Origin: an uncultured Candidatus Saccharibacteria bacterium
GTDB lineage: Bacteria; Patescibacteriota; Minisyncoccia; Phycocordibacterales; XYD1-FULL-46-19
Reading direction: 5' to 3'
Assembly: GCA_964639285.1 (NCBI GenBank)
Contig: CAZXCI010000002.1
Location: 45,660 to 109,659 of the forward strand
DNA: 64,000 bases
In this document: positions 7,308 through 63,680 of the stretch, in pieces
Layout of the letters: the number at the start of each line of letters is the position of its first letter
How positions within the stretch are numbered: position 1 is the stretch's first letter
Notes under the pieces: generated by a model
What the model was told of the DNA's origin: nothing
Database searches by the model: none
What the model saw: only the letters and a program-made list of their open reading frames with translations
Position numbers and translations under genes: made by a program

Positions 7308-9539
7308 TTATTCAAAATGTAATTCTTGTTTTTGGGCAGAGAGGCGGGTGAGGAATCGGGGGTGCTGCGAGAGGTCGGGGTCTTGGTCGATTATCCTTTC
7401 GGCTTCGGCGCGGGCTGCTTCTACCATTTTAATATTTTTAATGGCTTCCATACCTATGTCGGTGATACCCCATTGTTTCTCACCGGTAATTGTTCCTGAA
7501 CCGCGCAGGGCTAGGTCGTGTTCGGCTAACTCGAACCCATTTTTGGCATTAACTAAGGCCTTAAGTCGGTCCATCGATTTCTGACTTTTAGTCTCTGAGA
7601 AAATATAGCAATGAGCTTGATGATTAGAACGTAAGACTCGTCCACGCAGTTGGTGGAGTTGGGCGAGTCCGAACCTCTCAGCTCCTTCAATTACAATGAT
7701 AGTAGCATTGGGAACATTGACGCCCACTTCGATCACTGAGGTTGAAACCAAAATATTGATGTCACCGTCTACAAATTGTTGCATCGTATCCTCCTTGTCT
7801 TTGGGTTTCAATTTGCTGTGCATCACCTCAACGACAAATTCGGGGAAGACTTTGTCTTGGAGGCGGACGGTTTCGGCTTTGGCTGATTTTGCCTGCACGG
7901 CCATCTCTTTGTCAGGGTCAGGCTCATTAATGCGGGGGCAGATAACATAGGCTTGTCTCCCAGCTTTAAGTTCTGTGCGGATATGGTCATAGGCCTCGTC
8001 GCGCTTGTCGGGGGGAACGATCTTGGTAATGATCGGTTTGCGTCCGGCCGGCATTTCGTCAAGCAGAGTCAGATCAAGGTCGCCGAAGATGGTGAGGGCC
8101 AAAGTCCGGGGGATGGGGGTCGCCGTCATGGATAAAAGATGAGGCAAAGGAGTCGCTTTATCTTTGCTTGCCCGAATGCCATTGGCGGGCGGGTCACTTA
8201 CTCTTCTTACTAATTTTGCTCTTTGCATCACGCCAAAGCGATGTTGCTCGTCGATAATGGCATAGGCCAAATTTTTGAATTTAATTTGCTTTTGAATTAA
8301 GGCGTGAGTACCGACAACAATCGGGATTTCGCCGTTGGCTACCCACTTTAAGAGTTGAGGCTTAGAAATATGAGTTGCTTCATGAGGGTTAATCTTTGAG
8401 GGAAATTTTTTACATTCTTTGCCAGTGATGAGACCGATCTGAACGTTTATATGTTCGAAATATTTGATAAAAGATTCGAAGTGTTGACGAGCCAAGATTT
8501 CGGTTGGAGCCATATAAGATACCTCTAAGCCCGCCTTAACCATGACAAAGGTTGTGGCCGCCGCGACCATCGTTTTGCCTGAGCCGACATCGCCTTCGAG
8601 GAGACGAACCATGGGCTTGTCACTAGCAAAATCAGAGAGAATTTGGTCAATCGCTCTAGTCTGAGCTTGGGTTGGTTTGAAGGGGAAGCGGTCGAGAAAT
8701 TCTCGCAAATCTTGGCGATTAACTTTAGTTTTAAAACTCGGGTTACTTTGATAAATTTTCTTATCACGCAAACGGGCCAATTGAATGAAAAAGACTTCTT
8801 CGAAGGCGAAGCGCTTCCTGGCTGCTTGCGAATCCTCAATTTTTTTTGGCAGGTGGATCCAGACTAGGGCGGTAGCGAGTTTGGGCAGATTATATTTTTG
8901 GAGAATTTCTTCAGGAATAGGGTCAACAATTTTCTCATGCTCGCTCTCGCTAATTAATTTTTTAATATGATAATAAAACCAGCCCGAAGTAATGCCTCTG
9001 GTTTCTGGATAAATAGGAATTAAGGAATCTTCTTTTTCTTTGCCCGAGGCTAGTCCTCGGGCAGAATAAAACAGACTGGCTTTCCCTGCCTGCCATGCAT
9101 GCGCAGGCATTGCGGGCAGGTCAATTATCTCAGGGTTAGCTAGATAGAGTTCGGGGAGTGTGTTTTCTGGGGCACCAACCTTCTTTCTTTTGGCGGAGAT
9201 CTTTCCTCGGAAGGCGGCGAGGGTTCCCTCCGATATCTTTTTGGCCAAATAAGCTTGATGAAACCAGACGGCCTTAATCTTGCCGGTCTCATCCTCGATA
9301 ACGGCCTCGCCCATGGGGATCTTACTTCGCCAACCCTTTTTTGTTTTGGCCGAAATAACTCGACCGTAGATCGTCGCTTCATCTCCGGCTCTCAAATCAA
9401 TAATATTTTTTTGCGTTCCCGGCTCTTCGTAACGAGAGGGGAGGTGGCGCAGGAGTTTCTCTGGACTATCCACTCCTAATCTCTCCAACGCTTTTTGCTG
9501 GATAAGATTAGGTCGAAATAATTTATCAAACCAAGGCAT
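7308..9539 (-). CDS. recG: ATP-dependent DNA helicase RecG
   Basis: 743 aa with an N-terminal wedge/OB domain, a helicase motif I DVGSGKT, DEQH, and a C-terminal RecG region. Confidence 0.9.
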   Translation of the reverse strand: MPWFDKLFRPNLIQQKALERLGVDSPEKLLRHLPSRYEEPGTQKNIIDLRAGDEATIYGRVISAKTKKGWRSKIPMGEAVIEDETGKIKAVWFHQAYLAKKISEGTLAAFRGKISAKRKKVGAPENTLPELYLANPEIIDLPAMPAHAWQAGKASLFYSARGLASGKEKEDSLIPIYPETRGITSGWFYYHIKKLISESEHEKIVDPIPEEILQKYNLPKLATALVWIHLPKKIEDSQAARKRFAFEEVFFIQLARLRDKKIYQSNPSFKTKVNRQDLREFLDRFPFKPTQAQTRAIDQILSDFASDKPMVRLLEGDVGSGKTMVAAATTFVMVKAGLEVSYMAPTEILARQHFESFIKYFEHINVQIGLITGKECKKFPSKINPHEATHISKPQLLKWVANGEIPIVVGTHALIQKQIKFKNLAYAIIDEQHRFGVMQRAKLVRRVSDPPANGIRASKDKATPLPHLLSMTATPIPRTLALTIFGDLDLTLLDEMPAGRKPIITKIVPPDKRDEAYDHIRTELKAGRQAYVICPRINEPDPDKEMAVQAKSAKAETVRLQDKVFPEFVVEVMHSKLKPKDKEDTMQQFVDGDINILVSTSVIEVGVNVPNATIIVIEGAERFGLAQLHQLRGRVLRSNHQAHCYIFSETKSQKSMDRLKALVNAKNGFELAEHDLALRGSGTITGEKQWGITDIGMEAIKNIKMVEAARAEAERIIDQDPDLSQHPRFLTRLSAQKQELHFE

Positions 9540-36047: not shown

Positions 36048-36515
36048 ATGAAAAAAAGTTTACTTAAAAAAGGTTTTACCCTTATTGAGCTCTTAGTCGT
36101 CATTGCGATTATCGGTATTTTGTCAGGGATTGTTTTGACGTCACTTGGTACAGCACGAAATAAAGCGAAATCATCCTCTGCTGTCGCTAGTTTGTCTTCT
36201 ATGCGTGCACAGGCCGAACTTGGGATGACTTCTGGCGGGACATACTCTCCCACTTTGTGTACTGGGACTAGCAATGGTGAATTAGGTGCTTTGAGGTCAG
36301 CTGTCACTGGTCAAGGAGCTGCTGTCAAATGTGCCACAAAGGGGGCCTCTCCGACAGGGTGGATTGTTGTTGCTGATCTTACGAGTCTTGAGTCTGGTAA
36401 ATATTATTGTGTCGACTCTCTGGGGGCCGCGACAAGTACTGTTGCTAGTGTATATAGCGGGGTAACAGACGCGGCGACAACTCAAGCTAACGGTTGTAAC
36501 GGCACTAGTTTGTAA
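36048..36515 (+). CDS. pilA: Type IV pilin (major pilin candidate)
   Basis: A class III signal MKKSLLKKG|FTLIELLVVIAIIGIL with E5, followed by a Thr/Ser/Gly/Ala-rich body. Confidence 0.85.
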   Translation: MKKSLLKKGFTLIELLVVIAIIGILSGIVLTSLGTARNKAKSSSAVASLSSMRAQAELGMTSGGTYSPTLCTGTSNGELGALRSAVTGQGAAVKCATKGASPTGWIVVADLTSLESGKYYCVDSLGAATSTVASVYSGVTDAATTQANGCNGTSL

Positions 36516-36521
36516 ACAAAT

Positions 36522-36559
36522 CAAGGGGAGGTTTCGTCAAGGGGAGGTTTCGCCTCCCC
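36522..36559. repeat. Tandem REP-like units ending in hairpin GGGGAGGTTTCGCCTCCCC (left end of RAYT copy 1)
   Basis: CAAGGGGAGGTTTCG occurs twice in tandem. The second copy forms a 7-bp stem hairpin and also serves as the pilA terminator. Confidence 0.6.
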
Positions 36560-36596
36560 TTTGGCGTTGTTTGTGTCATAATGTTATAATTCTTGC

Positions 36597-37250
36597 ATGG
36601 CCTCAACAAAAAGTTTTGCTCTCGATGAATATTATCATCTCTTTAATCATGGTAATGGCGATCGTCTGATTTTTCTTGATGACAAAGACAAAGAACGTTT
36701 TTCTAAATTACTCTATTTGGCCAATGGTTCTACCCCATTTGATTTTGAAGACATTTCTTCTGGCCAAGAATTTTTCTTTGATCGCGGGGACCCTTTGGTG
36801 GCCATTGGTGCCTGGTGTTTGATGGATAATCATTACCATCTTTTAGTTAAGGAAATTACTGACGGTGGAATTAGTCGGTTTATGCATCGCTTAGCGACAG
36901 GCTATACAATGTATTTTAATCGTTGTCACAAAAAGCGGGGGAGTTTGTTTGAGAGTTGTTTTCGAGCAAAGTATTTGGGTCTAGATGAATACCTAAGACA
37001 TATGTTTGCCTACATCCACCTTAATCCTGTCAAAATGATTGAACCAAGATGGAAAGACGTTGGTCTAAAGGATCTCCACACGGTCAAGTCCTTCTTGCGA
37101 GATTACAAATTTTCGAGTTATTTAGATTATCTGGGTCAATCTCGCCCACAAAATAAGATACTAGACAAAGAGGCTTTTCCGAAATATTTTTTAAGTCCGC
37201 AAGAGATAGAAGATGAGATGATAGATTGGCTTGATTGGGATTATTCGTAA
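36597..37250 (+). mobile_element. IS200/IS605-type Y1 (HUH) transposase, RAYT-like, copy 1
   Basis: HUH motif HYHLLV, catalytic Tyr in YIHLNPVK, 217 aa. It is flanked by inverted copies of the GGGGAGG...CCTCCC hairpin, with a TATAAT at 36585. Confidence 0.75.
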
Positions 37251-37282
37251 AGATTTAAAATTATAACACAAGTAGGCTCGAA

Positions 37283-37300
37283 GGGGAGGCGAAACCTCCC
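37283..37300. repeat. Inverted REP-like hairpin GGGGAGGCGAAACCTCCC (right end of RAYT copy 1)
   Basis: It is the reverse complement of the left hairpin, loop included. Confidence 0.6.
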
Positions 37301-37361
37301 AACGGGTTGACGGTGGATAAAAATTTGTTACTTTGTTGAGTTATGGATTATAATAAATCTA

Positions 37362-37868
37362 ATGATAGAGATAGAAAGATCTTTATTTAAGAAAGGTTCA
37401 TCCGACCTAAAGACGGGCTTCACATTAATTGAACTTTTAGTCGTCATTGCGATTATTGGTATTCTATCGGGGATTGTGTTGACGAGTTTGAATAGTGCAC
37501 GAATAAAGGCGAGAGAATCAGCGGCAATAGCTGGGATGTCTAGTTTAAGATCGCAAATGGAAATTGTTTCCACTGATGGCAGTTATGGAACAGCTGGTTC
37601 TGTCCTCGTCCCTTCGACTGGGGAAGTAGTTGGTAATGCGGGTGTTTGTTCTGACCCTCAAAGTATAAATATCCTTAAAAATGTCGCTTCTAATGCTGGT
37701 AATGCAGCAAGATGTTATGTCGGAGTAGATGGCCAAACCTGGATGACTTATGTTCTTCTTCCTACCCAAATTTTTCCAAATAATTATTGTGTTGATAGTT
37801 CTGGCCATAGCGCAAAGCTAACCAATTTTCCTGTCTCTAACATCAGTTTTGCTGTTAAATGCAAATAA
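37362..37868 (+). CDS. Type IV pilin paralogue
   Basis: ...DLKTG|FTLIELLVVIAIIGIL prepilin N-terminus with an unusually long leader if it starts at 37362. Confidence 0.75.
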   Translation: MIEIERSLFKKGSSDLKTGFTLIELLVVIAIIGILSGIVLTSLNSARIKARESAAIAGMSSLRSQMEIVSTDGSYGTAGSVLVPSTGEVVGNAGVCSDPQSINILKNVASNAGNAARCYVGVDGQTWMTYVLLPTQIFPNNYCVDSSGHSAKLTNFPVSNISFAVKCK

Positions 37869-37953: not shown

Positions 37954-39414
37954 ATGGTAATAATTAGGCCAAAAAAAATGAAGAATAAAAAATCTCTCAT
38001 TCTTTCGATTTGTGTCAGTCTTCTGATAGTCTTAGCGTTGTTTGTTCTACCTAGCGTCGATCAATCGGTGAGGGCTCAAGAAGCAGGCAATTCTCTCCAT
38101 GGTTATGTCTGGAGTATGGATGTCGGGTGGATTAGCCTAAATGCTAATGATGCTGGGACTGGCACGACAGCCGATTATAAGGTTGAGATGATTGACGGCG
38201 TTTTGACTGGTTATGCTTGGAGTCCAAGCCTGGGCTGGCTCCGCTTTGGTAGTGATTTGAGTGGTCCCGTTGGGGCTGAGGATGATTATAGTGCTAGAAT
38301 TGTTGAAGAAGGTGGAAAGAAATGGGTTAAAGGCTGGGCGCGCTTCTGTTCTGTCTATGAATCAAATTGTTCCGGGACCGTGAAGAATATTAGTGGCCTA
38401 GAACTTGGCGGTTGGGATGGTTGGCTCAAGATGGTGAATGTAGAATATAAGCCTGATACCGACCGATTAGAAGGTTATTCTTGGGGCGATCTTAATGTTG
38501 GTTGGGTTGATTTTTCGGCCAGGACCGGATGTACCCCTGTCGATAATGTAGATACTAATTGTAATGGCCTCGTTGATTGCGCTACTAATTGTGGCGGGGT
38601 CTGTGTTTCTAATTGTGGTGGTCCCACCCCGACAGTTGAGTGTAAAGTTACCCCAAGTTCAGGCGGGGTGGGGACTGAGTTTACTTGGTATATCAATAAT
38701 CTTAGAAATTTTACTGGTGATCCAAAAGATTTCACTTATACCTGGACAGGAACAACCCCCCTTTCTGGTTCGGGAGAATGGAATAGTGTTTTAAGCCGAA
38801 ATGAAAATAAAGTAACATATTCTATGTCTGGAACTAAGACTGGTGGGGTAACGGTAACAAATGGTTCGCAAACGGCGACTGATTCCAGTTGTAATAACGG
38901 GATCGGGGATGGGGTTATCGTTACCCTTCCTTGTGTTAATCCTGGCGGAGCTATTATGGAAATCGGCCAGTATTGTTGTGATAGTCCAGAAATAGCGCGG
39001 ACTGTTGGTGATATTTGTCCTTATTCTCCGGAGGATTGCCAATTAGAGACATCTACTGGCAGTAATTATATTCGATTTACAGAAGGGAATGGTGCCACTT
39101 TAAGTCAAATTTCCGCAAAGATAACGATGACGGGCTGTGGTGGTTCAGATCTGTCTCTTTCTACTCCTGATTTGCCAGGAGGCCTCTCTTTGGTTTGTAG
39201 CAGGACGAAAGAAGGTTCTTATAACGCAGGAAATTGTTCTGGCTTGACAGGGACAATGGATATCTGGGCTGGAGTTAATTATATCTACCGGCCGACAGGT
39301 TACACTTTCTTCAATAATCCCAATAGGAAGGATCTCGTAATGGGGCTTGTTGGGGTGACACCCTCTCCAGAAGTCGTCGTGCCTTTACTATATGATGTTC
39401 CTGCTGGCACTTAA
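37954..39414 (+). CDS. Secreted Cys-rich repeat protein (possible pilus-associated adhesin)
   Basis: A signal/TM after MKNKKSL, a thrice-repeated GY(V/A/S)WS..(V/L)GW(I/L/V)(S/R/D)F motif, and many Cys in the C-terminal half. Confidence 0.45.
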   Translation: MVIIRPKKMKNKKSLILSICVSLLIVLALFVLPSVDQSVRAQEAGNSLHGYVWSMDVGWISLNANDAGTGTTADYKVEMIDGVLTGYAWSPSLGWLRFGSDLSGPVGAEDDYSARIVEEGGKKWVKGWARFCSVYESNCSGTVKNISGLELGGWDGWLKMVNVEYKPDTDRLEGYSWGDLNVGWVDFSARTGCTPVDNVDTNCNGLVDCATNCGGVCVSNCGGPTPTVECKVTPSSGGVGTEFTWYINNLRNFTGDPKDFTYTWTGTTPLSGSGEWNSVLSRNENKVTYSMSGTKTGGVTVTNGSQTATDSSCNNGIGDGVIVTLPCVNPGGAIMEIGQYCCDSPEIARTVGDICPYSPEDCQLETSTGSNYIRFTEGNGATLSQISAKITMTGCGGSDLSLSTPDLPGGLSLVCSRTKEGSYNAGNCSGLTGTMDIWAGVNYIYRPTGYTFFNNPNRKDLVMGLVGVTPSPEVVVPLLYDVPAGT

Positions 39415-54555: not shown

Positions 54556-54574
54556 ATCAAGGCACGCCCTTGAT
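54556..54574. repeat. Subterminal hairpin ATCAAGGCACGCCCTTGAT (left end of RAYT copy 2)
   Basis: A 7-bp stem. Near-identical copies occur at 55275-55297 in the same orientation and at 54763-54781 (inside the ORF) in inverted orientation. Confidence 0.6.
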
Positions 54575-54605
54575 GATCCCTGCATCTGGGGGTATAATAC
54601 TGATT

Positions 54606-55271
54606 ATGCAAAGGAGTTTTTCTTTTGGCCCGGGAGAAGTTTATCATCTTTATAATCGGGGGGTTAATAAACAAAGGATTTTTTCGGGTGACCATGATCG
54701 CTTTCGTTTTTTGATACTTATGTATCTTTGCAATAGCAAAAAAGATGTTCATGTCAGCAATTATCAAGGGCGTGCCTTGATGGACTACTTTACTATTGAA
54801 AGGGGTGATCCTGTGGTTGAGATCATGGCTTATTGTTTGATGCCAAATCATTTTCATCTGTTAGTGAAAGAAAATAAAGAGGGTGGTATTTCTAGATTTA
54901 TGCTTAAACTTTTGACTGGTTATGGTATGTATTTTAACAAAAAGAACGAAAGAACTGGGCCAATTTTTGAGGGGCGTTTCAAGGCTAAGCATGTTGTTGA
55001 GGATTCTTATCTAGAGTACCTGTTAGCTTATATTCATCTAAATCCAGTGAAAACAAAAGATGAAAAAGGTTGGGATGAAAAGAAGATTTTCAAGACTAAA
55101 ATAGCAAAAGACTTTTTGAGTTCGTACCGTTTTTCTAGCTATCAGTATTTTTTGGGTCAAAATCGTTCAGAAGATCGCATCCTCAATACCACTTCTTTGC
55201 CTAAGGAGTTAATTGATGGTCAGAAAGATACAGATGATTTGATAAACATATGGTCAGAATTTGAAGCCTGA
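54606..55271 (+). mobile_element. IS200/IS605-type Y1 (HUH) transposase, RAYT-like, copy 2
   Basis: HUH motif HFHLLV and Tyr in YIHLNPVK. It is roughly 45% identical to copy 1 by eye. A TATAAT at 54592-54597 lies 8 nt before the ATG, so the mRNA is probably near-leaderless. It is flanked by hairpins at 54556 and 55275. Confidence 0.75.
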
Positions 55272-55357
55272 TTACCATCAAGGTACGCCCTTGATGGTCA
55301 GGTTAATTTGGTGAGGCTTGGATTTTGGTCAATTTTTTGCTAAATTGTACTAGTTAT

Positions 55358-55428
55358 TGCCGGATCGTCTAATGGTAGGACACATCCCTCTGGAGGATGG
55401 TATCTTGGTTCGAGTCCAAGTCCGGCAG
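55358..55428 (+). tRNA. tRNA-Gln (anticodon CUG)
   Basis: Acceptor TGCCGGA/TCCGGCA, anticodon stem CATCC/GGATG, loop CTCTGGA, T-arm CTTGGTTCGAGTCCAAG and discriminator G. Confidence 0.75.
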
Positions 55429-55589
55429 CACGCTAGTTTCGGTATCGAAGGACCTAAACAGGTAATAATTGTAATGGTTCTAGAATGATCTAAACTGGTA
55501 TGTGTCTTGTACATAGAACTTTTATTCAAAAAGTACCAGACCTAGACCAGTGACATTCCTAGAGGGTCAGCAGTCTAGAAAAGTATCGA

Positions 55590-63418: not shown

Positions 63419-63557
63419 TACATACATGCCCCGACAGAGAAGCTTTGGCTCTCTGCCGGGGCTTCTTCGTTCATTGAAATATAAAAATTTTTCTGATATT
63501 CTAAAATCACAATTGAATATGGTGGCCTAAACCTACGCTTTTCAATTAAGGCTAGGC

Positions 63558-63680
63558 ATGGCTCAAAGTCCCGATGAAGACACTGAACCCCGCGTTCAGC
63601 AACTCTTCATCGGGCCATATCGGGAAACCGGTATGGGGTCGCAAGACCTAGCTAGCGCGGGGCTTAGTGTATATGAATGA
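63558..63680 (+). other. Structured GC-rich leader with a 40-codon upstream ORF preceding the T5orf172 gene
   Basis: Long stem CCCGATGAAGA...CTCTTCATCGGG (63570-63614) with an internal hairpin. GNRA hairpin GGTC-GCAA-GACC (63637-63648). The ORF MAQSPDEDTEPRVQQLFIGPYRETGMGSQDLASAGLSVYE has a stop that overlaps the downstream ATG. Confidence 0.3.

Follow-up and report, generated by a model that had tools for sequence, protein, structure and literature searches.

What are two genes for transposase-like enzymes doing in one short stretch of Patescibacteria DNA, each bracketed by small hairpins? The stretch analysed here (hereafter the window) is 64 kb long, and the hairpin counts given for the source genome refer to these 64 kb. 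It carries two genes for Y1 nucleases of the HUH superfamily, one (copy 1) between two prepilin genes and the other (copy 2) beside pyrG. A first-pass annotation described copy 1 as a RAYT/IS200-like transposase inserted between the pilin genes, and its hairpins as resembling repetitive extragenic palindromes (REPs). We consider it likely that both loci are instead domesticated and vertically inherited, and belong to a large clade of class-2 TnpAY1 enzymes specific to Patescibacteria, each constituting a minimal REPtron or TIRtron with hairpins of its own. The comparisons behind this reading draw on 80 related Patescibacteria loci from metagenomes, together with orthologous loci recovered by exact-protein look-up (cited below by our own handles, such as L004 or P0003).

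The enzymes

Judged by sequence and predicted structure, both open reading frames (ORFs) encode HUH/tyrosine Y1 enzymes with a RAYT-like fold and invariant catalytic residues, as the first-pass annotation had proposed. Each exceeds the cut-off of 23 for the Pfam family Y1_Tnp (PF01797, 'Transposase IS200 like'), with 28.5 and 32.3 bits. In an alignment of 31 family members the residues H79, H81, Y139, H141, N143 and P144 are invariant, as are W152, S173, S174, R183, P195 and W211 in the C-terminal part. In a profile search of the PDB, HFH falls on HMH and YIHLNPVK on YIYINPVK in E. coli TnpAREP (4ER8), the active site of which consists of H59, H61, Y115 and N119 (PMC3479197); Y139 and N143 correspond to the catalytic Y115 and N119. 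The AlphaFold2 model has a pLDDT of 92, and its best match in a Foldseek search of the PDB is again 4er8_A (E-value 9e-7), with TnpA of IS608, ISDra2 and IS200 at 1e-3 to 1e-2.

The catalytic residues thus align to those of TnpAREP, as an affiliation with RAYTs or IS200 would lead one to expect, but the nearest group by sequence appears to be neither canonical RAYTs nor IS200. It is the group variously called TIRYT (Di Nocera et al. 2013, PMC3733652), TnpAY1 subclass 2.1 (Quentin et al. 2018, PMC6006769) and RAYT Group 1 (Bertels et al. 2017, PMC5581495). Against ten reference sequences drawn from Additional file 5 of PMC3733652, the family profile scores 56-88 bits with TIRYTs and 14-35 bits with canonical RAYTs, and the motifs NH[YF]H, F[EQ] replacing W[EQ], Y[IV]HLNP and the SS tail match those listed for subclass 2.1 (Table 1, PMC6006769). 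The scores with the NCBIfam model NF047646 REP_Tyr_transpos (38.9 and 45.9 bits) lie below its equivalog cut-off of 80. The reference TIRYTs align to the family profile at positions 8-42 and 65-147 only; over the last ~70 residues there is no Pfam domain (only Y1_Tnp matched) and no match to any reference sequence. Searches of the PADLOC and PHROGs libraries gave no match, and no relative was found among the 2.9 million viral contigs of IMG/VR. The family itself comprises 1,130 clusters at 50% identity (E-values up to 1e-30), and the sources that name its proteins give Patescibacteria, Paceibacterota or Vogelbacteria.

Hairpins at fixed positions

A perfect hairpin, defined as a stem of at least 6 bp with a 5-nt loop and sought between -130 and -20, precedes 57 of the 85 distinct family genes that had enough upstream sequence. 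Its architecture is fixed: the 5-nt loop caps a stem whose AGG:CCT top is conserved and whose lower part is variable. The top of the stem ends in AGG in 52 of 65 upstream hairpins, whereas the lower stem varies by locus (GGGAGG, TCAAGG, CATAGG, GCTAGG and CGGAGG are examples) and the stem length ranges from 6 to 17 bp; among 49 centred hairpins nothing is conserved beyond (C)(A)AGG-N5-CCT(T)(G), and there is no conserved GT[AG]G foot. Up to 150 nt from a Y1 gene AGG-N5-CCT has a density of 3.69 per kb, some 60 times the 0.061 per kb found in the remainder of these loci. The positions are fixed as well. Upstream, a median of 25 nt separates the end of the hairpin from the ATG, which places it over the -35 position; a downstream hairpin that matches it is found in 42 family genes and begins a median of 16 nt past the stop codon, often overlapping it. 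A further cognate copy lies inside the gene's own coding sequence (CDS) in 12 of 54 family genes, at +155 to +193, where it codes for (Q/E/K)-G-x-x-(L/F) in a surface loop; the internal hairpin that had been noticed in copy 2 is thus a family feature, and the copy 2 orthologue in L121 (68% identical) has one as well. By sequence, hairpin copies are alike within a locus and different between loci. That each paralogue has its own hairpin had been proposed from the window, and this layout of gene plus cognate hairpin recurs across the family. Hairpins diverge with the proteins at short range, differing at 2.6 of 17 core positions between proteins at least 65% identical and at ~8.5 between those below 55%.

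In the window, both genes, the five hairpins and a 16-nt tandem unit lie where the first-pass annotation had located them. The 19-mer GGGGAGGTTTCGCCTCCCC of copy 1 is at 36541-36559 (+) and its reverse complement, with 1 mismatch, at 37283-37301; no further match is present in the window at up to 3 mismatches, with 0.00 expected from shuffles. The tandem unit CAAGGGGAGGTTTCG occurs twice, at 36522 and 36538. The inverted hairpins are part of a terminal inverted repeat longer than had been noted, 45 nt at 80% complementarity (36542-36586 against 37256-37300), in which TTGTGTCATAAT is mirrored as ATTATAACACAA. The copy 2 type, ATCAAGGYACGCCCTTGAT, is at 54556 (+), 54763 (-, within the CDS) and 55277 (+), with 0.01 expected by chance and no extra copy elsewhere in the window. 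Its right hairpin had been placed at 55275, near which the extended stem does start; the 19-mer core begins at 55277. Unlike copy 1 with its inverted repeat, copy 2 is flanked by direct hairpins only. When the whole window was scanned under relaxed criteria (AGG-N5-CCT, 7 or more pairs), five hairpins came up, against 0.29 expected; four are at the two Y1 genes and one is in recG. All hairpins of both copies fold better as DNA than shuffled controls (-11.4 kcal/mol, z -3.3, for the left hairpin of copy 1), and Rfam has no family at the hairpin positions of either copy.

Could these be plain terminators, insulators or stabilisers of RNA 3' ends, alike through local duplication, which the Y1 protein does not recognise? 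They do lie 3' of neighbouring genes (18 nt past pyrG, 26 nt past pilA and at the stop codon of Y1), they fold stably as RNA (-21 to -24 kcal/mol), and the orientation of the loop is unconstrained, as for a purely structural element. Such an explanation is nonetheless unlikely, given that the T-tract is inconsistent and a terminator scan does not call the hairpins, that the AGG:CCT top and 5-nt loop are conserved family-wide and enriched beside Y1 genes, with this top present in 74% of loop-5 hairpins near Y1 genes and 9% of the others in the loci, and that one sequence recurs on both sides of the gene and within the CDS while differing between loci. The upstream copy, moreover, lies before the Y1 transcription start, over the -35. 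A dual role of the left hairpin of copy 1 as terminator of pilA, as previously suggested, is plausible: no other structure separates the stop codon of pilA from the promoter of Y1, and a U-rich stretch comes after the hairpin, although it escapes the simple terminator scan. L004 has, ahead of its Y1 hairpin, another one that is terminator-like and related in sequence, which is a point for the terminator explanation.

A hairpin embedded in a leaderless promoter

Analysis of the 85 family genes places TATAAT at -12 in 57 (67%), compared with 20% of 341 control ORFs from the same loci, while a Shine-Dalgarno-like sequence precedes 1% of Y1 genes and 5.6% of control ORFs. With TATAAT at this position and the Shine-Dalgarno sequence nearly absent, both copies and the family as a whole share the leaderless layout proposed for copy 2, where 7 nt separate TATAAT from the ATG. 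TATAAT 6-7 nt before an ATG without a Shine-Dalgarno sequence is also fairly common among the control ORFs of these Patescibacteria loci (L036-L115). From its sequence, the upstream hairpin appears to be embedded in this leaderless promoter, at a fixed position over the -35 region. The -35-like TTGGCG of copy 1 begins two bases past the left hairpin, and in a clade with TCTTG loops the loop and 3' arm together read TTGCCT, 17 nt from TATAAT.

A palindrome that spans the -35 of its gene's own promoter might also be a palindromic operator, xxAGG-N5-CCTxx, for a dimeric regulator that binds double-stranded DNA and does not cleave it. The irrelevance of loop or spacer orientation, and copies that are few and local, would fit such a regulator. 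We consider it very unlikely that regulation is all the protein does: the HUH histidines, the tyrosine and the metal-binding asparagine are invariant in 31/31 sequences, which argues for retained catalysis, a stem of 6 to 17 bp is unlike a fixed operator, and a regulator bound to the copies at the stop codon, within the CDS or inside recG would find no promoter there.

Age and inheritance of the loci

Orthologues of copy 1 are found directly after the pilin gene or genes of the same cluster in L004-L006 (78% identity), L036 (75%) and the P0003 contig (75%), and FtsE-FtsX-PyrG precede the 68% orthologue of copy 2, just as they precede copy 2 itself. L004 and the window are 78% identical in Y1, 81% in PilC, 50% in the pilin and 31% in the next ORF. 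Synonymous sites are saturated (proportion of synonymous differences, pS, 0.80), and the non-synonymous divergence (dN) of the pilin is 0.52, compared with 0.145 for PilC and 0.12 for Y1; copy 2 has a dN/dS ratio of 0.08-0.14. The flanks have been retained too. Copy 1 orthologues share GGAGG-yTTCG-CCTCC hairpins, with the core GGGAGG-yTTCG-CCTCC kept in those of L004 and L036, and three of them retain the non-coding hairpin together with the blocks TTGTGTyATAAT / ATTATAACACA, with ATTATAACACA and the top of the right hairpin invariant. The left stem of copy 2 is kept in L121, with the loop flipped. Persistence of non-coding hairpin and TTGTGTyATAAT / ATTATAACACA sequences while synonymous sites saturate shows selection on the flanks, and gene and hairpins together are, on these comparisons, kept at orthologous sites under purifying selection. 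No near-identical Y1 gene occurs in a different context among 94 genes, all near-identical pairs having identical flanks, that is, representing the same strain in different samples. Because of the synteny, the saturated synonymous sites and this lack of a near-identical copy elsewhere, the Y1 unit is best seen as an old, immobile resident. The first-pass annotation had proposed comparing the pilA to pilin-2 junction among relatives as a means of dating the insertion; the site turns out to be shared by old orthologues, and 'inserted' does not hold as a description of a recent event at either locus.

These observations bear on the idea that the loci are an autonomous IS200-like insertion sequence, consisting of hairpin ends and a transposase, that moved fairly recently into the pilin operon and beside pyrG. 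The unit is certainly compact, at ~760 bp with a hairpin at each end; the copy 2 hairpins share one strand, as do the two ends, left and right, of IS200/IS605 elements, copy 1 has its 45-nt terminal inverted repeats, and the protein matches a Pfam family named for IS200 transposases. It is scarcely credible all the same, since orthologues of 68-78% identity occupy these sites in spite of saturated synonymous positions, the window's own two copies are only 42% identical, and none of 94 genes has a near-identical counterpart in another context. The tyrosine motif, moreover, is Y-x-x-x-N-P (class 2), not the Y-x-x-x-Q of IS200, the proteins have ~220 rather than ~150 residues, and there is no tnpB.

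The pilin genes themselves invite another explanation, in which Y1 is a pilin-locus recombinase and the hairpins serve it in duplicating, shuffling or switching pilin genes, with pilin variation as the result. Copy 1 orthologues are always by pilins, the number and side of which vary (1+1 in the window, 1+0 in L004, 2+0 in L036, 2+2 in P0003), pilin sequences change quickly (50% identity, dN 0.52) beside a conserved Y1, and a 62% paralogue lies near a second PilB/PilC pair. This is nevertheless extremely unlikely. In the family a pilin-like ORF occurs within 2 kb of only 6/65 genes (0.049 per kb, the background being 0.032 per kb); copy 2 and its orthologue adjoin pyrG, no hairpin copy lies beyond the pilin genes within the window, and pilin-2 has its own promoter-like site. 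Adjacency to pilins is a matter of synteny within one lineage, not a family trait.

The 62% paralogue (in the region L007 5800-12654; also L008 and L009) is itself flanked by direct CTTCCGAGGTCGAACCTCGTAAA repeats. Its neighbours in L007 include a phage-capsid-like gene, RelB/YafQ and a Fic protein besides the second PilB/PilC pair, and it and the pilin-locus orthologue P0005 are apparently on the same 127.5-kb contig.

Dispersal and an orphan hairpin in recG

REP-like hairpins would be expected to be scattered. Besides the absence of extra copies in the window, 355 kb of relatives' sequence around the 57 loci with a defined cognate hairpin contain 13 extra copies at 0.2-2 kb, usually beyond the adjacent gene, and 2 at more than 2 kb, or ~1 per 177 kb. 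Cognate copies are thus far above chance for a 17-mer, yet there is no REP population; together with the missing GTAG foot, this leaves the REP-like dispersal envisaged earlier without support. Across 185,579 species genomes, GGGAGGTTTCGCCTCCCC had 26 single matches, with ~17 expected by chance. The 19-mer GGGGAGGTTTCGCCTCCCC recurs in several Chloroflexota assemblies, mostly Chloroflexales (L014, L024 and L027, all from one metagenome-assembled genome of Roseiflexaceae; L017, L020, L026, L032 and L035), and is present twice, 70 nt apart, in L020; within these 8-kb loci there is no Patescibacteria-type Y1 gene, and the Chloroflexota sequences may represent an unrelated REP-like family.

The fifth hairpin of the relaxed scan, in recG, has a third type of sequence, for which the window contains no cognate Y1 gene. 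Its 21-nt core, GCC CGA GGA CTA GCC TCG GGC, is exactly seven codons (ARGLASG) in the linker between wedge and helicase. RecG of L122, which is 82% identical, lacks these 21 nt and that of L123 has them decayed by three substitutions, which marks the feature as a hairpin-only in-frame indel; nine of ten other RecG orthologues that were aligned are without the segment, and the tenth, P0423, has a similar SPRGPSSGK. Insertion or excision of a hairpin would leave such an indel, and in-frame REPs in repair genes are on record (PMC3733652). As far as sequence can tell, the recG feature hints at past mobility of the hairpin. Some Patescibacteria RecG homologues (P0393, P0406, P0417, P0420, P0421 and others) are ~150 residues longer, with a PF13366 ('GxxExxY protein') domain inserted in the helicase.

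How the unit may work

Vertically inherited, domesticated enzymes of this kind would bind their own hairpin when it is extruded on single-stranded DNA and, by analogy with TnpAREP and IS608 TnpA, could cleave and rejoin the strand beside it. This reaction might occasionally copy the hairpin, in either orientation and mostly in cis, and such copying would explain the local copies, the copy within the CDS and the recG orphan. Binding at the hairpin embedded in the promoter would autoregulate the Y1 gene. The gene itself is probably no longer mobile, and its placement between pilin genes would reflect inherited synteny, not a pilin-specific function.

Several points weigh against this account. 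Binding, cleavage and strand transfer are extrapolated from homologues that are ~13% identical in structural alignment, and the assignment to subclass 2.1 is based on motifs and on scores against ten reference sequences; for that subclass the literature reports no REP-like flanks, Quentin et al. having found no REP-like structures (PMC6006769). The overall correlation between protein and hairpin distances is weak in a Mantel-type test (Spearman -0.11, permutation p 0.065), because most pairs are saturated. With 64 kb of the source genome covered, a larger dispersed hairpin population may exist there. Finally, orientation appears random: the downstream copy is inverted in 22 and direct in 19 cases, sometimes differing between close relatives, and the loop of the upstream copy flips between orthologues, as between copy 2 and L121. 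The contrast between inverted hairpins at copy 1 and direct ones at copy 2, which the first-pass annotation read as a difference between the paralogues, is therefore not a property of paralogue lineages. Random orientation and loop flips are unexpected for a loop- and strand-specific enzyme that needs a defined pair of ends, and fit structure-only or double-stranded palindrome recognition equally well; insertion in either direction, template switching at a palindrome and loop-blind recognition are conceivable causes.

A bolder version of the same ideas is that a catalytically intact, phylum-wide Y1 family, with two or three copies of a private AGG-N5-CCT hairpin on its own promoter, stop codon and CDS as the sole regular substrates, constitutes a self-contained, autoregulated module for writing hairpins, which occasionally seeds hairpin-only inserts at the 3' ends of neighbouring genes and, in frame, in recG. 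We hold this to be unlikely; if true, such a module would supply structural or terminator elements to very compact genomes and would be a minimal, tractable model of what RAYT-type enzymes do for their hosts.

Features of the window

The features discussed above are collected in Table 1.

Table 1. Y1 genes, hairpins and adjacent features of the window (positions in the 64-kb stretch)
Feature	Position	Strand	Remarks
Copy 1 Y1 HUH nuclease gene	36597-37250	+	217 aa; H79-Y-H81; Y139-I-H-L-N-P; family-specific C-terminal domain of ~70 aa (predicted)
Type IV prepilin gene (155 aa), upstream neighbour	36048-36515	+	N_methyl / IV_pilin_GFxxxE matches; context, outside the element
Second prepilin gene (168 aa), downstream neighbour	37362-37868	+	N_methyl / GFxxxE motif; 46% identical to the first; context
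Promoter-like site of pilin-2	37325-37354	+	TATAAT 7 nt before the pilin-2 ATG; no Shine-Dalgarno sequence
Two tandem 16-nt units TCAAGGGGAGGTTTCG	36521-36552	+	5' arm and loop of the hairpin, duplicated
Copy 1 left cognate hairpin AAGGGGAGG-TTTCG-CCTCCCCTT	36539-36561 (core 36541-36559)	.	abuts the -35-like hexamer
Left arm of imperfect 45-nt terminal inverted repeat	36542-36586	.	hairpin and TTGTGTCATAAT; from repeat search
Copy 1 promoter-like site	36561-36590	+	TTGGCG, 18 nt, TGn-TATAAT (36585-36590), 6 nt to ATG; no Shine-Dalgarno sequence
Right arm of terminal inverted repeat	37256-37300	.	ATTATAACACA at 37260-37270; hairpin GGGAGG-CGAAA-CCTCCC at 37284-37300
Mirrored TTGTGTTATAAT near copy 1 right end	37260-37271		
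Copy 2 Y1 HUH nuclease gene	54606-55271	+	221 aa; 42% identical to copy 1 over the full length
Copy 2 left cognate hairpin ATCAAGG-CACGC-CCTTGAT	54556-54574	.	18 nt past the pyrG stop; DNA fold z -4.0
TATAAT of copy 2	54593-54598	+	7 nt before ATG; leaderless layout
Internal copy 2 hairpin, loop inverted	54763-54781	.	158 nt into the CDS; codes for Y-Q-G-R-A-L-M, surface loop
Copy 2 right cognate hairpin ACCATCAAGG-TACGC-CCTTGATGGT	55274-55298 (core 55277-55295)	.	direct orientation; DNA fold -10.1 kcal/mol, z -5.3
Orphan AGG-N5-CCT hairpin, third sequence type	9041-9063	.	in recG (7308-9539, -); core GCCCGAGG-ACTAG-CCTCGGGC on the coding strand

The type IV pilus cluster around copy 1 has PilC upstream and a prepilin peptidase downstream. 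Past pilin-2 lies a 486-aa ORF (37954-39414, +) without a Pfam match. It keeps its position in L004 and L036 at only ~31% identity, from which it appears to be a fast-evolving member of the pilus cluster; its product is probably secreted. Copy 2 is on record with a 232-aa start, which the gene caller used, and for that reason the 221-aa form is not. Four Logan contigs from the source population that carry copy 2 (L116-L119) all end ~123 nt past the gene, inside a tRNA-Gln (window 55358-55429), which suggests a repeat or a strain breakpoint there. At 63524-63649 (+) the window matches the Rfam LOOT RNA (RF03000) with 76.9 bits, the gathering score being 46.4.

Significance

The host function of RAYT-type domesticated transposases is hard to study amid hundreds of REPs. 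In the present clade a single gene with two or three hairpins, fixed in position, makes up the whole system, which is as strongly conserved as PilC even though these genomes have shed nearly all that they can spare. With two paralogues, each with a distinct hairpin, cross-specificity is directly measurable. For annotation, Y1 genes of this type are no evidence of recent mobile-element activity or of disruption of a pilin operon. The association with hairpins would also extend to subclass 2.1 / Group 1, a branch reported to be without such flanks.

Comparison with known systems

A search of the literature library at hand found no paper linking RAYT or IS200 Y1 enzymes with Patescibacteria or the Candidate Phyla Radiation, and each known family differs from the present one in at least one of the features compared. 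TIRYTs are closest. They give the best sequence match, share the four motifs and a length of ~220-240 residues, and have a low copy number with diverged paralogues within a genome. Some TIRtrons possess a terminal inverted repeat that includes a self-complementary tract, as does the 45-nt repeat of copy 1. Unlike in TIRYTs, the C-terminal domain of ~70 residues bears no Bac_DnaA_C, HTH_23 or HTH_28-like extension, and the flanks are short, perfect AGG-N5-CCT hairpins, not inverted repeats of the GGGGWSAS type (6/8 positions of that motif are matched by GGGGAGGT, in copy 1 only); about half of the Patescibacteria family, moreover, has its two copies in direct orientation.

With the REPtron, represented here by E. 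coli TnpAREP / RAYT and its REPs or BIMEs (PDB 4ER8; PMC3479197, PMC3333891, PMC8266576), the family shares the best fold match and the active-site residues, a single-copy, vertically inherited gene flanked by its own palindromes, and several paralogues that each have their own palindrome family. The Y-x-x-x-N-P tyrosine motif, with YIHLNP invariant in the Patescibacteria family, is likewise that of RAYTs and class 2. The proteins fall under the NCBIfam REP_Tyr_transpos cut-off, however, and the hairpins have neither GT[AG]G foot nor bulge and form no abundant dispersed family, either in the window or in the 355 kb from relatives. A canonical RAYT/REP system was rejected on the foot, the dispersal and the NCBIfam score.

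IS200/IS605 elements such as IS608 and ISDra2 resemble the loci in their HUH/Y1 fold and in hairpins near both ends, on the same strand in copy 2. They differ in having Y-x-x-x-Q where the window proteins, 70 residues longer, have Y-x-x-x-N-P, and the window genes are syntenic and lack identical multiple copies; IS200 was rejected for its tyrosine motif, length and copy pattern. A cognate hairpin inside the CDS, with the frame intact and in a surface loop, recalls subclass 2.4 (RAYT Group 4), in which in-frame REPs lie inside the element's own tnpAREP (PMC6006769). The protein subclass is different, though, the Patescibacteria copy lies before HUH, at ~codon 53, rather than between HUH and the tyrosine, and the hairpin is short and perfect rather than a long GTAG or 'double foot' REP. 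The concept of an enzyme with its own palindromes is known; a minimal, promoter-embedded set of hairpins at fixed positions and strong conservation in reduced genomes make the loci convenient for questions of host function.

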